Shown here: in pieces, positions 13,103-49,909 of the stretch
Position numbering within the stretch: position 1 is the stretch's first letter
How the letters are laid out: each line of letters opens with the position of its first letter
Source: Nitrospirota bacterium
GTDB lineage: Bacteria; Nitrospirota; UBA9217
NCBI GenBank assembly: GCA_035623825.1
Contig: DASPSR010000049.1
Location: 1-64,000, forward strand
Reading direction: 5' to 3'
Length of the DNA stretch: 64,000 nt
Program-made: the position numbers and the translations under genes
The notes under the pieces: generated by a model
Databases searched by the model: none
What the model saw: only the letters and a program-made list of their open reading frames with translations
What the model was told of the DNA's origin: nothing

Positions 13103-13669
13103 ATGAAGATCCTGTTCCACATATGCTGCGCGCCATGCGCGCTCTATCCCTATTACAGAATGAAGGAAGAAGGGATGGATCCGTTCGGTTATTTTTACAA
13201 TCCGAATATTCATCCCTTTATGGAATATAAAAGACGGCTGGATACAGTGAAGGACTTTTCTCTCCGTGCGGGACTCGAGGTCCGCTATCGGGACGGTTAT
13301 GACTTGGACGAATTCCTTGCGCGTGTCGCTGGCAGAGGGTCATTGCGGTGCGAGCAATGTTACCGGATGCGACTGGACGCCGCCGGTGCAGCGGCGCGGG
13401 AACTCGGGTTCACTGTCTATACGACGTCCCTCTTGTACAGCAAATATCAAAAGCATGATCTCATCAAGGGGATAGCCGAGGAAATGGCATCAGATCATGG
13501 CATCGAGTTCTACTATGAAGACTTCCGACGGGGATGGCGCGAAGGGATCATGGAGTCGAAGGCCATGGGGCTTTACCGCCAGCAGTACTGCGGTTGTATC
13601 TACAGCGAACGGGATCGGTATTGGAAAGCGGGAGAAAGGGACACAAAGGGGAAAGGAACGGTGCGGTGA
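13103..13669 (+). CDS. queH: Epoxyqueuosine reductase QueH (DUF208)
   Basis: HICCAPC, FYNPNIHP, RCEQCY and YRQQYCGCIYS motifs. Confidence 0.9.
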   Translation: MKILFHICCAPCALYPYYRMKEEGMDPFGYFYNPNIHPFMEYKRRLDTVKDFSLRAGLEVRYRDGYDLDEFLARVAGRGSLRCEQCYRMRLDAAGAAARELGFTVYTTSLLYSKYQKHDLIKGIAEEMASDHGIEFYYEDFRRGWREGIMESKAMGLYRQQYCGCIYSERDRYWKAGERDTKGKGTVR

Positions 13670-13695
13670 TAGGGACGTGTCGTGCTCTTGGTAAC

Positions 13696-14799
13696 ATGAT
13701 CAGTTCTTTCAAGACCTTTCGGCTGAACATGGTAATATGTGTCGTATTCCTTTTTCTCTCCCCTGCCTCATTTGCCTCTGAAAACATTCGTGTTGCCTTG
13801 GCGGATAACCAAAGAACCGTGACGCTCAAATCTCCAGAAGGACTCGTCGTGGAGGGCGCTCCATTAGGAGGACATGGAGAGAAGAAAGTGGTGTTCGGAT
13901 CCGCCTCCGTGGGTGCCAAAGTTGTACGCATAAGGTCCAGGGGGGACGTTACTCAGGTAAACGGCGGCAGTTATCGCGGATGGATAGAGCTCAGGAAGAA
14001 AAAGAACGGCCTTCTCCTCGTTATCAATGAGCTTGATATAGAGCAATACCTCCTGGGAGTCATCGCCGCTGAAGTCCCTCAAGACTGGGACATTGAGGTT
14101 CTGAAAGCTCAAGCCGTGGCTTCAAGGACCTTTGCGCTCTACCAGAAAAGAACATCGGGGAAGAGACCCTATCACATCCTCGCCACGGTGGACGGACAGG
14201 TTTATTCCGGGAGAAACGGGGAACGTGAGAACGCCGTGAGGGCCGTGAGAGAGACAAAGGGGATCGTCATCGTGTATGATGGAGAGGTGATCCCGGCGTT
14301 TTATCATGCGAGTTGTGGTGGCCATACTGAGGATGCCGCGGAGCTTTGGGGCATTGATGTCCCGTACCTCAAGGGCGTTGACTGCGAATGTCAGGAGATT
14401 TCGCGATACGGCTTGTGGGAAAAAAGGATATCCGCCACTAAGCTTGCGGCCCTGCTCGGCCGTCAGGGATATCGCTTGAACGGTATCACGGGAATTGAAA
14501 TGGACAGTATTACCCCGGCTGGCAGGGTGCGACAGGTAGCGGTACGACACGCCGGCGGGACCGTGTTCATACCTGCGGAGACATTGCGTGCGGCGGTAGG
14601 GTATTCTTTCCTTCCGAGTGTATTTTTTGAGCCGGCCATGGAGGGAAACGAAGTGGTGTTCTACGGAAGGGGCCTAGGCCACGGTGTAGGTTTGTGCCAG
14701 TGGGGCGCGAAGGAAATGGCGCGCCATGGTTCTGATTTTAGATCTATTCTTTCGCACTACTATCCGGGGACTGCCTTGAAGAGGATAGAGGAGCTTTAG
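13696..14799 (+). CDS. SpoIID/LytB domain protein (start uncertain: 13696 or 13729)
   Basis: Signal peptide; EQYLLGVIAAE, EVLKAQAVASRTFA, FYHASCGGHTE and GHGVGLCQWGA...YYPG motifs. Confidence 0.9.
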   Translation: MISSFKTFRLNMVICVVFLFLSPASFASENIRVALADNQRTVTLKSPEGLVVEGAPLGGHGEKKVVFGSASVGAKVVRIRSRGDVTQVNGGSYRGWIELRKKKNGLLLVINELDIEQYLLGVIAAEVPQDWDIEVLKAQAVASRTFALYQKRTSGKRPYHILATVDGQVYSGRNGERENAVRAVRETKGIVIVYDGEVIPAFYHASCGGHTEDAAELWGIDVPYLKGVDCECQEISRYGLWEKRISATKLAALLGRQGYRLNGITGIEMDSITPAGRVRQVAVRHAGGTVFIPAETLRAAVGYSFLPSVFFEPAMEGNEVVFYGRGLGHGVGLCQWGAKEMARHGSDFRSILSHYYPGTALKRIEEL

Positions 14800-14801
14800 T
14801 C

Positions 14802-15602
14802 ATGGGGAAGAAATCATCCCGAGCACGTCTTCGCCGTAACAACGTTGTCGAGCATGTCCAATTGCAGAAAGCAAGCCACAATTACCCGGCATTCATTCTG
14901 TCCATATGCATTATCGTCTGTCTGGCGATTGCCGCGAACATGCGGAACGATATTTATAAAACACCGGTCACCATGTGGAGGGATACTGCTCATAAGTCGC
15001 CGATGAAGCGGAGAGCGCACGAGAACTTCGGTCAGGCGCTCTCAACAGCGGGTTTATACGGCGAGGCCATGCGGGAGTTCAAGACAGTCCTCGCCACGAA
15101 AGACGACGGGAGCGTACCTCCCCGAGACCTTTACCGGGAGATCGGCGTGGTCTATTTCCGGGTGGGAATGATTGACGATGCCATTGCATCCTGGCAGACG
15201 GGACTGCGATATTCTCCCCTTGATGCCAGCCTCCTGAATAACCTCTCAATAGCGTTCTTAAAGAAAGGACGGTATGATGAAGCTGACGCGACCGCCCGTA
15301 TGGCGCTTTCCGCAGTCCCAGGCATGCCGCAGGCCCTGAATACGCTGGGAGAGGTTTTTATGGCTCAGGGAGAGTACGACAAGGCGTCCGAGTATTTCCT
15401 CATGGCTATACAGAGGTCACCGGAAGACAAATATAAATACTGGAACGCAGCGCTTGCATTTGAGAAAGCGGGCAAGTATGACATGGCGTATCGATATATG
15501 AGTGCGTACGCCGTCATGGAGCCGGATCCCGCTGGAAGGCAGAGGGCCTTTCAAATGCTGAACAGACTGAAGAAACCGCCGGCAGGGGACCAGATGCCAT
15601 AG
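14802..15602 (+). CDS. Membrane-anchored TPR protein resembling the C-terminal half of TMTC-like glycosyltransferases
   Basis: One TM helix, then MRNDIYKTPVTMWRDTAHKSPMKRRAHENFG, then about 5 TPR-like repeats. Confidence 0.8.
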   Translation: MGKKSSRARLRRNNVVEHVQLQKASHNYPAFILSICIIVCLAIAANMRNDIYKTPVTMWRDTAHKSPMKRRAHENFGQALSTAGLYGEAMREFKTVLATKDDGSVPPRDLYREIGVVYFRVGMIDDAIASWQTGLRYSPLDASLLNNLSIAFLKKGRYDEADATARMALSAVPGMPQALNTLGEVFMAQGEYDKASEYFLMAIQRSPEDKYKYWNAALAFEKAGKYDMAYRYMSAYAVMEPDPAGRQRAFQMLNRLKKPPAGDQMP

Positions 15603-44414: not shown

Positions 44415-44858
44415 ATGAAGTATATCAGAGACCGCATTAGAAGCTTTTTCCATCTGAAAGACTCAGCGAACAGACTGGCATCCGCTTTCGCCCTCGGAGT
44501 GTTCATTGCGTTCACACCTACCATAGGATTGCACACGATCAGCTGTCTCTTTTTTGCCTGGATATTCAGGTTGAGCAAGCTCGTGGTTCTCACCGGGGCT
44601 TTCATCAACAATCCCTGGACCATCGTCCCCCTGTACGGCTTCTGCCTGTGGTTTGGCATCAGGATCACGGGCAGTGACGTGGTGACCCCTCGCATCGCGT
44701 GGAATGATCTCACGGTAACGAATGCTTACCTCATCCTCAAACCCTATCTGTGGCCATTTATCGCAGGGACCCTCGTGGTCGGGGCCGTTGCCGCAATTGT
44801 TTCTTACGGTATTATGTACTGGGCCATTGTACAGCACAGAAAAACGGATCTACCATGA
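44415..44858 (+). CDS. DUF2062-family membrane protein
   Basis: LASAFALGVFIAFTPTIGLHT...INNPWT pattern. Confidence 0.8.
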   Translation: MKYIRDRIRSFFHLKDSANRLASAFALGVFIAFTPTIGLHTISCLFFAWIFRLSKLVVLTGAFINNPWTIVPLYGFCLWFGIRITGSDVVTPRIAWNDLTVTNAYLILKPYLWPFIAGTLVVGAVAAIVSYGIMYWAIVQHRKTDLP

Positions 44859-45110: not shown

Positions 45111-46133
45111 CTGAAGGCACCGCTTGTTTCTGTTGTGATCGTGAATTGGAACGGAAAGCATCTTCTGGGCGAATGTCTCGAATCGCTCCGCCGCCAGACG
45201 TTCCAGGATTTTGAAATCGTCATTGTCGATAACGACTCGCGAGATGGTTCCGTAGAGTACATCCGCGAGCGGTATCGGGAAGTCAATCTCGTCACTCTGC
45301 CGGTCAATAAGGGATTTGCCGGCGGCAATAACGCCGGGATACGGATCGCCTCCGGAAGCTATATCGCGCTTTTGAACAATGATACAAAAACCGATCCAAC
45401 CTGGCTGGAGAACTTGATCAAGGAGGCAGAATCAAACCCTGCCGCCGGAATGCTGGCGTGTAAGATTCTTTCTTACAGTGATCCTGACATAATCGATAAT
45501 GTCGGGCTTCTCATATACCGCGATGGCCTCGCCAGGGGGAAAGGCAGGCTTGAACGAGACCGGGGACAGTACGATCAGAAAGGCGAAGCGCTTTTCCCGA
45601 GCGGGTGCGCCGGATTATATCGCAGGAATCTTCTGGAAGAAACGGGCCTTTTCGACGAGGAGTTCTTCGCGTATGCCGATGATGTGGATCTCGGACTTCG
45701 CGGAAGGCTGACGGGCTGGGGATGCGTCTACGTCCCCGCAGCAAAAGTGTACCACAAGTATTCGTCCTCCTCGGCTTCTTATTCTTCGCTGAAGGCTTTT
45801 TTAGTTGAACGAAACAGGGTGTGGGTGCTGCTCAAGTACTATCCTGCCGAGCTTATTGTTGCGAGCGCATACTTCACCGCCAAGCGTCTCCTGCTGCAGT
45901 TCTACGGCGCGCTATCCGGGAAGGGGGCCAGCGGCAGGTTCACAGCTGAAAACAGCATGTTTCACGCGGTCACTGTGTTGCTGCGGGCATGGTGCTCAGC
46001 ACTTGCGGCCACACCGCAGGTGCTGAGACAACGGTGGGAGTTTGCCAAGAAAAAACGTATCGGACGGCGTGAGTTCTACCGGTTAATTCGCGAGTTTGGG
46101 ATCTCGGCGTCAGAGATAGCGCTGAGGGACTAG
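45111..46133 (+). CDS. Glycosyltransferase family 2 (WbbL-like); probable CTG start at 45111, otherwise GTG at 45135
   Basis: PLVSVVIVNWNG, VDNDSRDGS, NKGFAGGNN, LLNND and FFAYADDVDL motifs. Confidence 0.9.
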   Translation: MKAPLVSVVIVNWNGKHLLGECLESLRRQTFQDFEIVIVDNDSRDGSVEYIRERYREVNLVTLPVNKGFAGGNNAGIRIASGSYIALLNNDTKTDPTWLENLIKEAESNPAAGMLACKILSYSDPDIIDNVGLLIYRDGLARGKGRLERDRGQYDQKGEALFPSGCAGLYRRNLLEETGLFDEEFFAYADDVDLGLRGRLTGWGCVYVPAAKVYHKYSSSSASYSSLKAFLVERNRVWVLLKYYPAELIVASAYFTAKRLLLQFYGALSGKGASGRFTAENSMFHAVTVLLRAWCSALAATPQVLRQRWEFAKKKRIGRREFYRLIREFGISASEIALRD

Positions 46134-46136
46134 ATT

Positions 46137-46826
46137 ATGAAGACATTGATAATTGTGCCAGCATATAACGAGGAAGAAAGCCTTCCCGGGGTGATACGCG
46201 ACCTGAGGGAGAACATCCGGTTCGCAGATATATTAGTCGTGAATGATGGTTCGCGGGATGCGACGGCGCGGACTGCCGAAGAGATGGGTGTCGTGGTTGT
46301 AAGCCTTCCGTTCAACCTCGGCATCGGCGGGGCGATGCAGGCAGGATATCTATACGCTGAGCAGGGAGGCTATGACATCGCCGTCCAATTTGACGGCGAC
46401 GGCCAACACCTTGCCGGGGAGATAGAGAAGTTGCTGCGCCAGATAAATGAAGGGAGCGCTGATCTCGTTGTTGGTTCCCGTTTCTTGAAGCGGGGGCGGT
46501 ATAATGCCTCTGTCTTCCGGAAAATAGGCATATGGATTTTTTCAGCTGTTCTTTCCCGAATCCTCGGAATGCCAGTGACCGACAGTACCTCGGGTTTTCG
46601 AGCTGCAAACCGCCGGGTGATCACATTTTTTTCCCGCACATATCCTGACGATTACCCGGAGGTGGAGGCGCTCGTCCTCCTTCACAAGGCAAAAATGCGG
46701 ATAGCCGAGGTGCCGGTCAGCATGCGCGAGCGCACGGGAGGAAGATCCTCAATAACCCCTATCCGTTCGGCGTATTACATGATAAAGGTTCTCTTGGCGA
46801 TCTTTATCGATTTGCTTAAAAAGTGA
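46137..46826 (+). CDS. Polyprenol-phosphate glycosyltransferase (DPM-synthase-like GT2)
   Basis: VPAYNEE, VNDGSRD, NLGIGGA, FDGDGQH, VGSRF and TDSTSGFRA motifs. Confidence 0.88.
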   Translation: MKTLIIVPAYNEEESLPGVIRDLRENIRFADILVVNDGSRDATARTAEEMGVVVVSLPFNLGIGGAMQAGYLYAEQGGYDIAVQFDGDGQHLAGEIEKLLRQINEGSADLVVGSRFLKRGRYNASVFRKIGIWIFSAVLSRILGMPVTDSTSGFRAANRRVITFFSRTYPDDYPEVEALVLLHKAKMRIAEVPVSMRERTGGRSSITPIRSAYYMIKVLLAIFIDLLKK

Positions 46827-46834
46827 GGTGGACA

Positions 46835-47209
46835 ATGGACCTGTTAAAAATTCTGGCAATCGTTGGAAGCGGGACGGTTTTGTTCCTCGTGATCGAACTG
46901 ATACGGCGAGGACGACTCAAAGAGCGCTATTCACTGCTATGGCTTTTTGCCAGTGGAGTGCTGCTGATCCTCTCATCATCGAGGGATATTCTCAAATATA
47001 TTTCAGACATGATGGGCATCTATTATCCGCCTTCGTTTCTTTTCCTGCTCGCGTTTTTGTTTCTGCTTCTGATCACCCTGCACTTCTCTGTGACTATCTC
47101 GGGGCTTTCGGAAAAAAATAAAAGGTTGGCTCAAGAGTTGGCGCTGTTACGCCAGGAAATGCGGGAATCCATCGGCAGGAGGCATGTCGACAGACCGGGG
47201 AAGGAATGA
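46835..47209 (+). CDS. DUF2304-family small membrane protein
   Basis: IRRGRLKERYSLLW...GIYYPPSFLF...KRLAQELALL; follows the DPM-like GT2. Confidence 0.85.
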   Translation: MDLLKILAIVGSGTVLFLVIELIRRGRLKERYSLLWLFASGVLLILSSSRDILKYISDMMGIYYPPSFLFLLAFLFLLLITLHFSVTISGLSEKNKRLAQELALLRQEMRESIGRRHVDRPGKE

Positions 47210-47294: not shown

Positions 47295-48479
47295 ATGGGG
47301 TCATTTCGCGGTAGCTTGGAAAAGATATTCCATAGCAATCGGTTTAACGCCATTGCGTTCGGCGTCATTGCGGCAATAATCCTGATAGCGTATTCCAATA
47401 CCTTTACGGCAAGCTTTCACTTTGACGATACCGCATCGATTGAAGAAAATTATCTGATTAAACGCGTGACCATGGATAATCTCATCAGCATCATGAAGGG
47501 CGTCCGGCCCGTGGTCTACCTGAGCATCATGCTCAATTACCAACTGAGCGGCCTGAATGTGGTCGGATGGCATGTTTTCAACATTGGACTTCATGTTGCC
47601 AACAGCTTTCTCATCTATCTGCTTATCAGCAGGACGCTGAGTTTGCCGACATTGGCAAAACGGTATGCTGATAAGGCGAAGAGGATGGCCCTGTTCGCTG
47701 CGCTTCTGTTTGCGGTACACCCTATCCAGACAGAAGCCGTCACCTACATCATAAGCCGCACTGAATTGCTGGCAACCTTTTTTTACCTGGCCGCATTTCT
47801 GTTGTTCATCCAGGGGACGCAGAAGCGCGCCTCTTCATATTATATCGGCGTCTTTTTCTCATCTCTCCTGGCTATTGGATCAAAAGAGTGGGCGGTGACC
47901 CTGCCCGCAATGCTCATGCTTTATGATTATATGTTTTTTTCGGAGGGAAATATAAAAAATGTCCTGTCCCATTGGAAGGCATTCGTGCTTGCAGCTTTGC
48001 CGTGGGGTTTGCTCGCTTATAACTTAAATTTAACCTCCGGTACAAGTGTTGGATTCAATGTGTCAACTCCGAGCGGCATAACCCCTGTTTCATACCTGCT
48101 GACTTCGTTCAATGTTATCTGGACCTATGTCAGGCTTTTGATCTTTCCGGTCAATCAAAACCTCGATTACGATTACCGGATTGCCAAGACACTGTTTGAA
48201 TTCCCTACATTACTGTCCTTGTTGGGACATGTAGCCCTCGTAGGGATAGCATTCTGGCTCTATAAAAAGAGAGGATGGCAATTAACATTCTTCGGGGTGG
48301 CGTGGTTTTACATAGCATTATCTCCTGTGCAGAGCTTTGTGCCGGTCATCGATGTCATTTTTGAGCATAGGCTCTATATGCCATCGATCGGGTTCTTTCT
48401 TGTTTTTGTCGTTGCCTATGAGAACTTCTTCGAATGGTGGGAAACAAAACAGTTGATAAGGAGAAGTTCCGCAGCATGA
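47295..48479 (+). CDS. TMTC-like GT-C membrane glycosyltransferase lacking the C-terminal TPR region
   Basis: YSNTF...FHFDD, RPV, HVFNIGLH, LFAVHPIQTEAVTYIISR, SKE and FEHRLYMPSIG motifs; multi-TM. Confidence 0.85.
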   Translation: MGSFRGSLEKIFHSNRFNAIAFGVIAAIILIAYSNTFTASFHFDDTASIEENYLIKRVTMDNLISIMKGVRPVVYLSIMLNYQLSGLNVVGWHVFNIGLHVANSFLIYLLISRTLSLPTLAKRYADKAKRMALFAALLFAVHPIQTEAVTYIISRTELLATFFYLAAFLLFIQGTQKRASSYYIGVFFSSLLAIGSKEWAVTLPAMLMLYDYMFFSEGNIKNVLSHWKAFVLAALPWGLLAYNLNLTSGTSVGFNVSTPSGITPVSYLLTSFNVIWTYVRLLIFPVNQNLDYDYRIAKTLFEFPTLLSLLGHVALVGIAFWLYKKRGWQLTFFGVAWFYIALSPVQSFVPVIDVIFEHRLYMPSIGFFLVFVVAYENFFEWWETKQLIRRSSAA

Positions 48480-48845
48480 AGCAGAAACGGGGATACATGC
48501 CGTAGAGGACTTCATAATCCGGTTCTTCCTGCGCGCATGACCCCCTCAGTGAGATTCCTGTCCGTCATTGTGTGTCGGGTAGCTGTGCTCCCGCCATGAC
48601 GGATAAGATGCCAAGCAGTATCGATGAACTTCCAGCCATATCATTTTCACTTTGTAAGTGTTTCATCCTCCGCCGCACGAAAGTTCTCTGCTGCGAACAT
48701 CATGGTTAACGTATGATGCCACAGCAAGGCATCTCTTCCCGGCCAAACCTGATCCTTCAGTGTGCTATAAAACTTTTATTGTGCGGGAGCATCACTGACT
48801 GTCCTGAAGGGATTGAATTCGATCAGTTTTGAGACGGCGAAGATG

Positions 48846-48878
48846 GTATTTTATGCCGGAACGGCAATAAAATACTTT
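48846..48878. terminator. Strong AT-flanked hairpin upstream of the patatin promoter
   Basis: GTATTTTAT-GCCG-gaa-CGGC-a-ATAAAATAC followed by TTT. Confidence 0.5.
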
Positions 48879-48904
48879 ACACTCTTTTGACATGATGCTA
48901 TCAT
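48876..48904 (+). promoter_or_regulatory. Putative sigma70 promoter for patatin
   Basis: TTTACA-17 nt-TATCAT with TG extension. Confidence 0.55.
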
Positions 48905-48946
48905 TGTTATCTGAAAAAAGCGATTTTAGGTTCTACTGGAGCATCT

Positions 48947-49909
48947 ATGGAGCCGAAGGTATGTCTGGCGCTGGGGGGTGGGGCGGCGAGGGGACTTGCG
49001 CACTTGGGGGTACTCAAGGTCTTCGAGGATGCCCGAGTGCCGTTCGGCATGATCGCAGGCACCAGCCTGGGCGCTCTGATCGGCGGACTTTACGCGTCGC
49101 AACCCGATGCTAAGTACTGGATGGGCCGGGTGGAGCAGTACGTAAGAAGTTTCCGGTCCCGGAAGACCCGCCTTACGTTCCTCCAGAGACTGGAACAGTC
49201 TGATAACGTGGACCATGGATTCTTCACCGACATGGCCAACCTGATCCGCAAGGGGTACTTCTGGGGGGTCACCGCCACCAAGCCAGCTTTCATTTCCGAA
49301 AAAGAATATGAGGACTTCATCTACCCCTTGATCCCCGATATCACGATCGAGCAGACCAAAATCCCCTTCAGCTGTGTCGCTACGGATATCCGTAACGGTC
49401 ATCGAGTCCTCTATACGAGCGGTTCGCTCCGCAGGGCTATAAGCGCAAGCTGCGCCCTGCCGGGCATATTCCCGCCGGTTGTTGACGGCGATAAACTACT
49501 CGTCGACGGCGGGTGGGTGGAGCGCGTTCCCGTGCACTGTGCCAAGGACTTGGGTGCCGATATTGTCATCGCGGTGGATGTGTCAAGCGAAATCGGCGGG
49601 TTTGAAGATAAGGTGGGGTTGGACGTGGTCCTCCGCGCAGATGCCGTGACCCGTATCTATCTGAACGAGCTGCTTATGGAGAAGGCGGATGTTGTCATCC
49701 ACCCCGAGGTGGGCGCAACGCACTGGGCAGACTTCAGCAATCCGCGGGATCTGTACCGGCAGGGAGAGACCGCGGCTCTTGAAAAACTCGTGACCGTCAA
49801 AACCGTGATACACAGGGCTGCCGTGACCCCTGTTCAGCAGAAAACAATTGCCGAGCAGATTAAAAAGATCACAGACAAGATCATCGAAAAAGTCGTTGGA
49901 GGGAGCTAA
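48947..49909 (+). CDS. Patatin-like phospholipase (RssA/NTE type)
   Basis: GGGAARGLAH, GTSLG nucleophile and VDGG motifs. Confidence 0.93.
   Translation: MEPKVCLALGGGAARGLAHLGVLKVFEDARVPFGMIAGTSLGALIGGLYASQPDAKYWMGRVEQYVRSFRSRKTRLTFLQRLEQSDNVDHGFFTDMANLIRKGYFWGVTATKPAFISEKEYEDFIYPLIPDITIEQTKIPFSCVATDIRNGHRVLYTSGSLRRAISASCALPGIFPPVVDGDKLLVDGGWVERVPVHCAKDLGADIVIAVDVSSEIGGFEDKVGLDVVLRADAVTRIYLNELLMEKADVVIHPEVGATHWADFSNPRDLYRQGETAALEKLVTVKTVIHRAAVTPVQQKTIAEQIKKITDKIIEKVVGGS

Follow-up and report, generated by a model that had tools for sequence, protein, structure and literature searches.

Conserved fission of a TMTC-like glycosyltransferase gene in Nitrospirota into a catalytic core and a helix-TPR tail

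Introduction

The animal proteins TMTC1-4 are protein O-mannosyltransferases of family GT105 in CAZy, within the GT-C/PMT clan, and use Dol-P-Man as the mannose donor for protein Ser/Thr residues. According to the available parts of the study by Eisenhaber et al. (PMC7801869), they have 11 membrane helices with the N-terminus in the cytoplasm, carry seven motifs and continue into TPRs on the same chain. Another O-mannosyltransferase, TMEM260, likewise combines a GT-C core with a TPR domain, and in the accessible sections of the source (10.64898/2026.03.17.711096) its TPRs are both needed and enough to recruit the acceptor peptide. It differs, in the same sections, in being a single chain of another family with an extra Rossmann-like domain that holds the catalytic base. 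TMTC-like proteins abound in bacteria, with 49,543 library clusters at an E-value of 1e-10, and a function, be it activity, sugar or acceptor, was not found for them in the literature searched.

In Pseudomonas aeruginosa, the genes for TfpW and TfpX presumably sit behind pilA. The two proteins, a membrane glycosyltransferase and an interacting accessory protein, modify type IV pilin (available parts of 10.1101/2020.04.19.049825). In the GacI-GacJ-GacK-GacL system of Streptococcus pyogenes, GacI and the DUF2304 protein GacJ provide GlcNAc-P-undecaprenol for the GT-C enzyme GacL, and the GT2 protein PpgS is similarly stimulated by Rv3632 (available parts of 10.1101/180810). GacL modifies a polysaccharide, and the accessible text describes no separate helix-TPR subunit for it. 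In the papers found, which come mostly from outside the subscription journals, a split or adaptor-type bacterial GT-C or TMTC protein is not described.

Results

A catalytic core that ends after ten helices

The window analysed here is a stretch of 64,000 nucleotides from a Nitrospirota bacterium (contig DASPSR010000049.1). The original prediction had singled out two of its open reading frames, both on the forward strand and 31.7 kb apart, as halves of one TMTC-like glycosyltransferase.

47295..48479, + strand: catalytic core, 394 aa, TMTC-like GT-C with helices 1-10 and no TPR
14802..15602, + strand: free tail (candidate adaptor), 266 aa, with a basic N-terminal leader, helix 11, an RN..W..KSP linker and TPRs
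48480..48946, no strand: intergenic stretch after the core, helix 11/TPR remnant absent

The motifs named in that prediction are all present in the core: FHFDD at residues 41-45, HPIQTEAV at 142-149 with R155, SKE at 196-198 and EHRLYMPS at 357-364. The reading frame and the structural model also agree with it that the protein ends one helix past EHRLYMPS, without TPRs. The AlphaFold model (pLDDT 83, pTM 0.87) contains ten membrane helices, with long external loops 1 and 4. The core thereby shows the multi-pass helical fold of the GT-C superfamily, with a pair of acidic residues in external loop 1, and D44-D45 is invariant among 90 core homologues. All ten top rows of a Foldseek search were GT-C proteins, the best being Pmt4, AglB, ArnT, STT3 and ALG3, at weak E-values (best 0.003, none at or below 0.001). 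In Pfam, PMT_2 matched the core at 6e-5, which is under the cut-off, and it matched 63 of the 90 homologues. No NCBIfam model covers the core, sequence searches of the PDB gave no match to it, and PDB searches by sequence or fold returned neither a TMTC structure nor TMEM260.

Counterparts of all seven TMTC motifs lie within helices 1-10, most of their residues being invariant among the 90 homologues; M1-M7 were taken from Table 4 in the available text of PMC7801869 and placed by eye rather than by alignment with the human sequence. M1, M3, M4, M5 and M7 are present and invariant or nearly so, with conservative changes in RxE, DY and EHRxY. M2 is represented by RP only, and M6 by two invariant prolines at a wider spacing. 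The likeness to TMTC1-4, as listed in the available text (PMC7801869), thus covers DD of M1, RP of M2, RxE of M3, KExxT of M4, DY of M5 and E-HR-xY of M7, and the core segment LLFAVHPI is as in TMTC3. The part of M2 that contacts mannose is not kept. The Pfam profile TMTC_DUF1736 (PF08409), which covers loop EL4, had no match in the 90 homologues or in the whole genome, fused paralogues included, and we therefore call the core TMTC-like rather than TMTC. A eukaryotic DUF1736 cluster was among the feature matches of the core (0.96).

The core gene has a dN/dS of 0.10-0.12. Gene and stop codon are identical in contigs from two public peat runs, which may be the source of the assembly itself, and the stretch is present in peat metagenomes. 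No RNA run was listed among the sequencing runs containing the stretch, a scan for promoters and terminators stayed at chance level, and tRNA and Rfam searches of the 64-kb window gave no match.

The tail gene supplies the missing segment

As predicted from the letters, the tail gene opens with the segment that the core lacks: one hydrophobic helix at residues 29-47, then the pattern RN..W.D...K.P...R.H.N.G, then TPRs. While a TMTC carries 11 helices and TPRs in one chain, ten helices are here encoded by one gene, and helix 11 and the TPRs by another. The two halves tile without overlap on P0102, the closest fused relative (611 aa), as had been anticipated. The core corresponds to its residues 1-396 (63% identity) and the tail to 407-597 (31%), with a gap of 10 residues in the linker. 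An alignment with P0102 and nine fused paralogues from the window's genome puts the end of the core and the start of the tail in the loop that precedes the last helix. This loop joins helices 10 and 11 on the cytoplasmic side, and either half can therefore insert with its native orientation. The leaders of free tails are mostly basic (33 positive and 6 negative of 50 scored), which would fit an N-in orientation with the TPRs in the periplasm.

Six-frame profile searches of positions 48480-48960 found no trace of helix 11 or a TPR, in line with what had been noted downstream of the core. Upstream of the tail gene there was likewise no trace of a core, the best E-value of the remnant searches being 0.8. 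The tail has a dN/dS of 0.19-0.26, and its homologues form a family of their own with lengths of 191-281 aa, fused lengths being excluded by design.

The split is old and shared across the family

Among the best 120 core homologues (lengths 216-690 aa searched), 119 are 374-438 aa long without TPRs and one is fused; the named ones come from Nitrospirota genomes obtained from metagenomes. The end point of the core is the same in relatives down to about 55% identity. The same split recurs among 64 genomes of the same Nitrospirota family: the core is found in 45, always in single copy, and the window's tail type in 51. Both are present in 42 genomes, the core only in three, this tail type only in nine and neither in ten, and the genera with the one are also those with the other (13 of 19), although the genomes are related and not independent samples. 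In the nine genomes with the tail type only, the core is frameshifted in four, partial in two and absent from three (assemblies of 330-490 contigs), and the three with the core only are assemblies of 250-550 contigs. The proposed pairing of the tail at 14802 with this core also holds, since this tail type occurs in 42 of the 45 core-bearing genomes and is the sole tail in G013 and G076.

Five well-assembled family genomes were chosen to ask which TMTC-like enzymes they hold, and in four of them (G013, G063, G065 and the single-contig G076) the split core is the sole one, with tails kept. The suggestion that the tails are companions of fused enzymes is unsupported, tails being kept in these four genomes, where fused enzymes are absent, and none being free in 13 genomes with fused enzymes only. 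Tiling, absence of remnants, short homologues and the family-wide survey all agree with the fission originally proposed, and the halves represent a clean, old and conserved gene fission.

One core, several tails

Tails were counted with a profile of helix 11 and the first TPR in 41 genomes, based on 150 of 171 matches, and all but one of the short-frame matches among these were fetched and inspected. Besides the window's own, there are at least 65 free tails in 19 family genomes, 1-10 in each, and none shares its frame with a core. At least one is present in each of the 17 core-bearing genomes of the 41. Five short-frame matches outside the family turned out to be fused or cut. The number of tails per single core ranges from 1 to 15, and several tails for one core would fit exchangeability.

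The genome of the window encodes four free tails, three of which the original prediction had not seen, and about ten fused paralogues. The tails are located behind spoIID, behind a type IV pilin, behind a multiheme-cytochrome/NHL cluster and behind a GtrA-GT2 fusion among fused paralogues. Their dN/dS values are 0.19-0.35, compared with 0.26-0.27 for a fused paralogue, and both the core and the tails are under purifying selection. The 66 family tails all resemble, on average, the tails of the 154 fused relatives of the core more than those of 18 fused paralogues found in genomes of the family itself (0.33 versus 0.27), and they therefore derive from the core's subfamily. They share the signature KSPxKxRxH, and within the predicted docking motif R and W are conserved in at least 90% and KSP in 80-90% of the 66. 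A tree of the tail segment (72 columns) was too short to resolve, and a homologue search with the pilin-linked tail gave no match.

The neighbours of the tails are mixed and often housekeeping genes. Four genomes (G008, G019, G023 and G024; loci L087, L102, L114 and L118) have two to three different tails in or around a ruvB-queH-spoIID cluster, which makes it a hot spot. In two unrelated genomes a free tail adjoins cytochrome c biogenesis genes of the CcsB/CcsA type (L173:370-3131 and L109:3410-5131), and cytochrome genes also adjoin tails in G003, G008, G014, G023 and G024. In the window's genome, a multiheme cytochrome cluster with an NHL-repeat gene is followed by a free tail and then by two fused TMTC-like genes (G000:C53:1156-13117, L023).

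The pilus locus provides a further site. A free tail is inserted before the ATPase gene in five of 30 pilus ABC loci of the family, and the pilin gene is directly there in 21. The pilin behind which the tail sits is rich in Ser/Thr (17-21%) in the four loci where it was seen. The pilus-slot tails differ in length (open frames of about 200-430 aa), which suggests separate insertions. The copy in the window's genome has a type IV pilin rich in Ser/Thr on one side and the pilus ABC genes on the other (G000:C35:24676-26407; L022:6677-8408). A Geobacter parallel of this pilin locus was not found in the literature searched.

Split cores outside the family

A scan of 251 genomes of the phylum, with up to seven candidates scored per genome, matched 40 genomes outside the family, of which eight had a short core and 32 had fused proteins only. 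Two of the eight were dropped, G145 with core and tails cut by contig ends and G263 with a cut core. All six genomes with a verified short core, from six families, carry free tails (1-15 short-frame matches). None of 13 fused-only genomes, picked for few contigs out of the 32, has a free tail; 62 of their 63 matches are fused, and the lone short match (G085) is a contig-end piece. G149, which is 1.8 Mb in size and comes from another family, combines a single core with 15 short-frame tail matches, of which 11 were checked, and lacks a fused tail (L237-L243). Its core belongs to the clade of the window's family, and transfer of the system is possible.

A free tail lies within 4 kb of the core at six of seven distant split-core loci, two of which are from one genome and one of which duplicates G095; no tail was found within 4 kb of the core in L192. 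In L228 the genes form an operon with overlapping frames in the order GT2-DUF2304-tail-core, and the tail also precedes the core in L227 (GT2-tail-core) and in L183 (tail-core, a deltaproteobacterial record). A frameshift could not give rise to this order.

The family cores form a single clade with a support of 99-100, inside which the fused P0102 is nested. P0102 is likely a re-fusion, the alternative being a chimeric assembly. The state changes between split and fused 7-8 times across the subfamily tree, and strongly supported branches require at least five of these changes. An AU test of monophyly rejected one common origin for all split cores (p 2e-69, on the 45 rows remaining after removal of P0102, one duplicate and three long outgroup rows). 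Read from the tree, the core-tail junction was repeatedly opened or closed, the direction of each change not being resolved by it. In the ESM Atlas there are also TPR-less clusters of 363-390 aa labelled Planctomycetota and Bacteroidota, which may represent a wider split or fragments.

A predicted core-tail complex

The binding of the two proteins anticipated by the original prediction is also what modelling predicts: ESMFold2 gave a complex with a score of 0.89 in three runs. This concerns one core-tail pair, and the best score of three unrelated controls was 0.00. Of 157 solved complexes 116 attained a score of 0.89, as did two of 215 mismatched pairs, a calibration that is roughly valid with own alignments. 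Contacts agreed at 94% or more and the pLDDT of the partners was at least 87. Helix 11 and the RN linker are predicted to pack on core residues 28-43, 134-151 and 285-293. We take the prediction as a sign of fit rather than of binding, because two parts of one divided gene may score well through their resemblance to the fused fold. Conservation is higher at the interface (0.87) than in the other residues (0.77), but the interface overlaps with the catalytic motifs; for the hydrophobic interface residues the difference was not significant (8 residues, p 0.07).

Neighbouring genes and the likely sugar donor

The genes next to the core and the tail in the window are as follows.

45135..46133, + strand: another GT2 encoded in this operon, kept next to the core in many but not all cases
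46137..46826, + strand: GT2 with PpgS (polyprenyl-phospho-GalNAc synthase) as best match, E-value 5e-32, under the family cut-off
46823..47209, + strand: small membrane protein with DUF2304, of the GacJ/Rv3632 family, which probably activates the GT2, a role taken from the available parts of 10.1101/180810
13534..14799, + strand: SpoIID/LytB-domain gene, directly upstream of the tail, from which 2 bases separate it; its place beside this tail type is conserved

The GT2 and DUF2304 genes adjoin the core at 43 of the 48 closest core loci, three of the five exceptions being cut by contig ends, while DUF2304 lies beside one of 23 fused loci, although identity thresholds bias this comparison. The window thus contains a linked polyprenyl-phosphate sugar synthase and DUF2304 protein of the kind found in three-component systems. 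No flippase gene lies beside the core, and a GtrA-like gene is near it in one relative (L036). Because a PpgS-like GT2 and a DUF2304 protein stand next to the core, as in GacI/GacJ and PpgS/Rv3632, the donor is, by analogy, likely a lipid-linked HexNAc rather than mannose. Mannose, suggested by the comparison with TMTCs in the original prediction, is not what these genes point to.

Cores often adjoin polysaccharide-synthesis loci. On the other side of the GT2 operon, a DUF2062 gene (window positions 44415-44858) is kept upstream in many relatives and weakly matches a BspA family model, under the cut-off. Reading of the frames places the window's tail type behind spoIID in 14 of 17 core-bearing genomes, and in six of these the assignment was confirmed with Pfam.

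Discussion

On balance, we favour the reading that the two genes encode one glycosyltransferase, in which a single core is probably shared by interchangeable tails that choose envelope proteins, and for which a lipid-linked HexNAc is the probable donor. The GT2 and DUF2304 proteins would produce undecaprenyl-phosphate-GlcNAc or -GalNAc, which would be flipped before the core transfers the sugar to Ser/Thr of an exported protein. The predicted assembly brings core and tail together in the inner membrane, where helix 11 and the RN..W..KSP linker would contact loop EL4 of the core and its helices 1 and 3 at their periplasmic ends, and the TPRs may hold the acceptor protein as those of TMEM260 do. 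The spoIID-linked tail would be the near-universal partner and the other tails lineage-specific additions, with the type IV pilin and multiheme-cytochrome clusters as candidate clients. More tentatively, the system may be a modular, ligase-like form of protein glycosylation, in which a housekeeping core serves up to 15 plug-in adaptors encoded beside their client genes (pilin, cytochromes and envelope enzymes). With the same reserve, docking might use a conserved one-helix interface that was opened and re-fused several times.

That the core works with the spoIID-linked tail alone, as a fixed pair, seems to us rather unlikely. The other tails would then be spare copies, membrane-anchored TPR scaffolds with separate roles (cytochrome c assembly being one example) or companions of the fused enzymes. 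This would agree with one tail type being near-universal and sufficient in G013 and G076, and with the patchiness of the extra tails, some of which lie in fused-gene clusters or between cytochrome c assembly genes. However, the extra tails retain the predicted docking motif at dN/dS values of 0.19-0.35, several are kept in G063 and G065, which have no fused enzyme, and G149 has 15 tail matches for one core and no fused tail, while the 13 fused-only genomes with their 62 fused tails have none that is free. A similarly low probability is given to the halves assembling into an enzyme whose acceptor is an envelope glycan or lipid-linked polymer, such as O antigen or a peptidoglycan-linked one, with tails placing it at SpoIID, the pilus or cytochrome export. 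Here the GT2, DUF2304 and GT-C genes have the layout of GacI-GacJ-GacL, which serves polyrhamnose decoration, and of three-component glycan systems generally (available parts of PMC11127046 for the latter). Polysaccharide genes often lie beside the cores, the conserved tail follows the gene of a peptidoglycan enzyme, and many neighbours of tails are housekeeping genes. The mycobacterial and streptococcal examples, however, inform on the donor and not on the acceptor, the characterised relatives with GT-C and TPRs (TMTCs and TMEM260) modify proteins as far as the available sources describe them, and some tails stand between a Ser/Thr-rich pilin and its ABC genes.

It is very unlikely that the core acts alone as a TPR-less, GacL-like enzyme, with the tails as unrelated leftovers of the ancestral gene from which both came. 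The joint occurrence of core and tail within the family and beyond it, operons that combine the two in either order, the nesting of fused P0102 in the split clade and the predicted complex all speak against this reading. It would accommodate the location of all seven TMTC motifs in helices 1-10, the many GT-C enzymes without TPRs, the missing nearby tail in L192 and the three of 45 core-bearing genomes without the window's tail type; these three are the assemblies of 250-550 contigs. A recent truncation, pseudogene or assembly error would be in keeping with mostly fused relatives in the wider family, as among the best 150 library matches of the core. Its probability is close to nil: the similar length of the relatives with an end point shared to about 55% identity, a dN/dS near 0.1, the absence of a downstream remnant and the identical public contigs rule it out.

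Compared with TMTC1-4, the system proposed here is bacterial, consists of two genes with several tails per core and is described from genes and models. The fused bacterial TMTC-like proteins are direct homologues, with 36-63% identity over the core, in a single chain. With GacI-GacJ-GacK-GacL and PpgS-Rv3632 it shares a GT2 polyprenyl-phosphate HexNAc synthase and a DUF2304 activator near a GT-C enzyme, but a flippase is not conserved beside the window's core. TfpW/TfpX are of another family with another sugar, and here the tail alone is found in the pilin locus (five of 30), the core being elsewhere. The natural split parts catalysis from targeting and marks helix 11 with the TPRs as an autonomous docking module; it makes the role of the TMTC TPRs testable by tail swaps and names a likely donor pathway. 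If the tails are exchanged, the glycosyltransferase could be retargeted by replacing a subunit of 100-350 residues, and if it is a modular ligase, tail swaps would reprogram it and the natural variants would dissect TMTC substrate selection.

In the window's genome, fused TMTC-like genes, the GtrA-GT2 fusion and a free tail are clustered at G000:C56:16729-26009 (L021), together with two membrane proteins of 397 and 479 aa without a Pfam match. This cluster is a second, separate candidate locus for lipid-sugar glycosylation.
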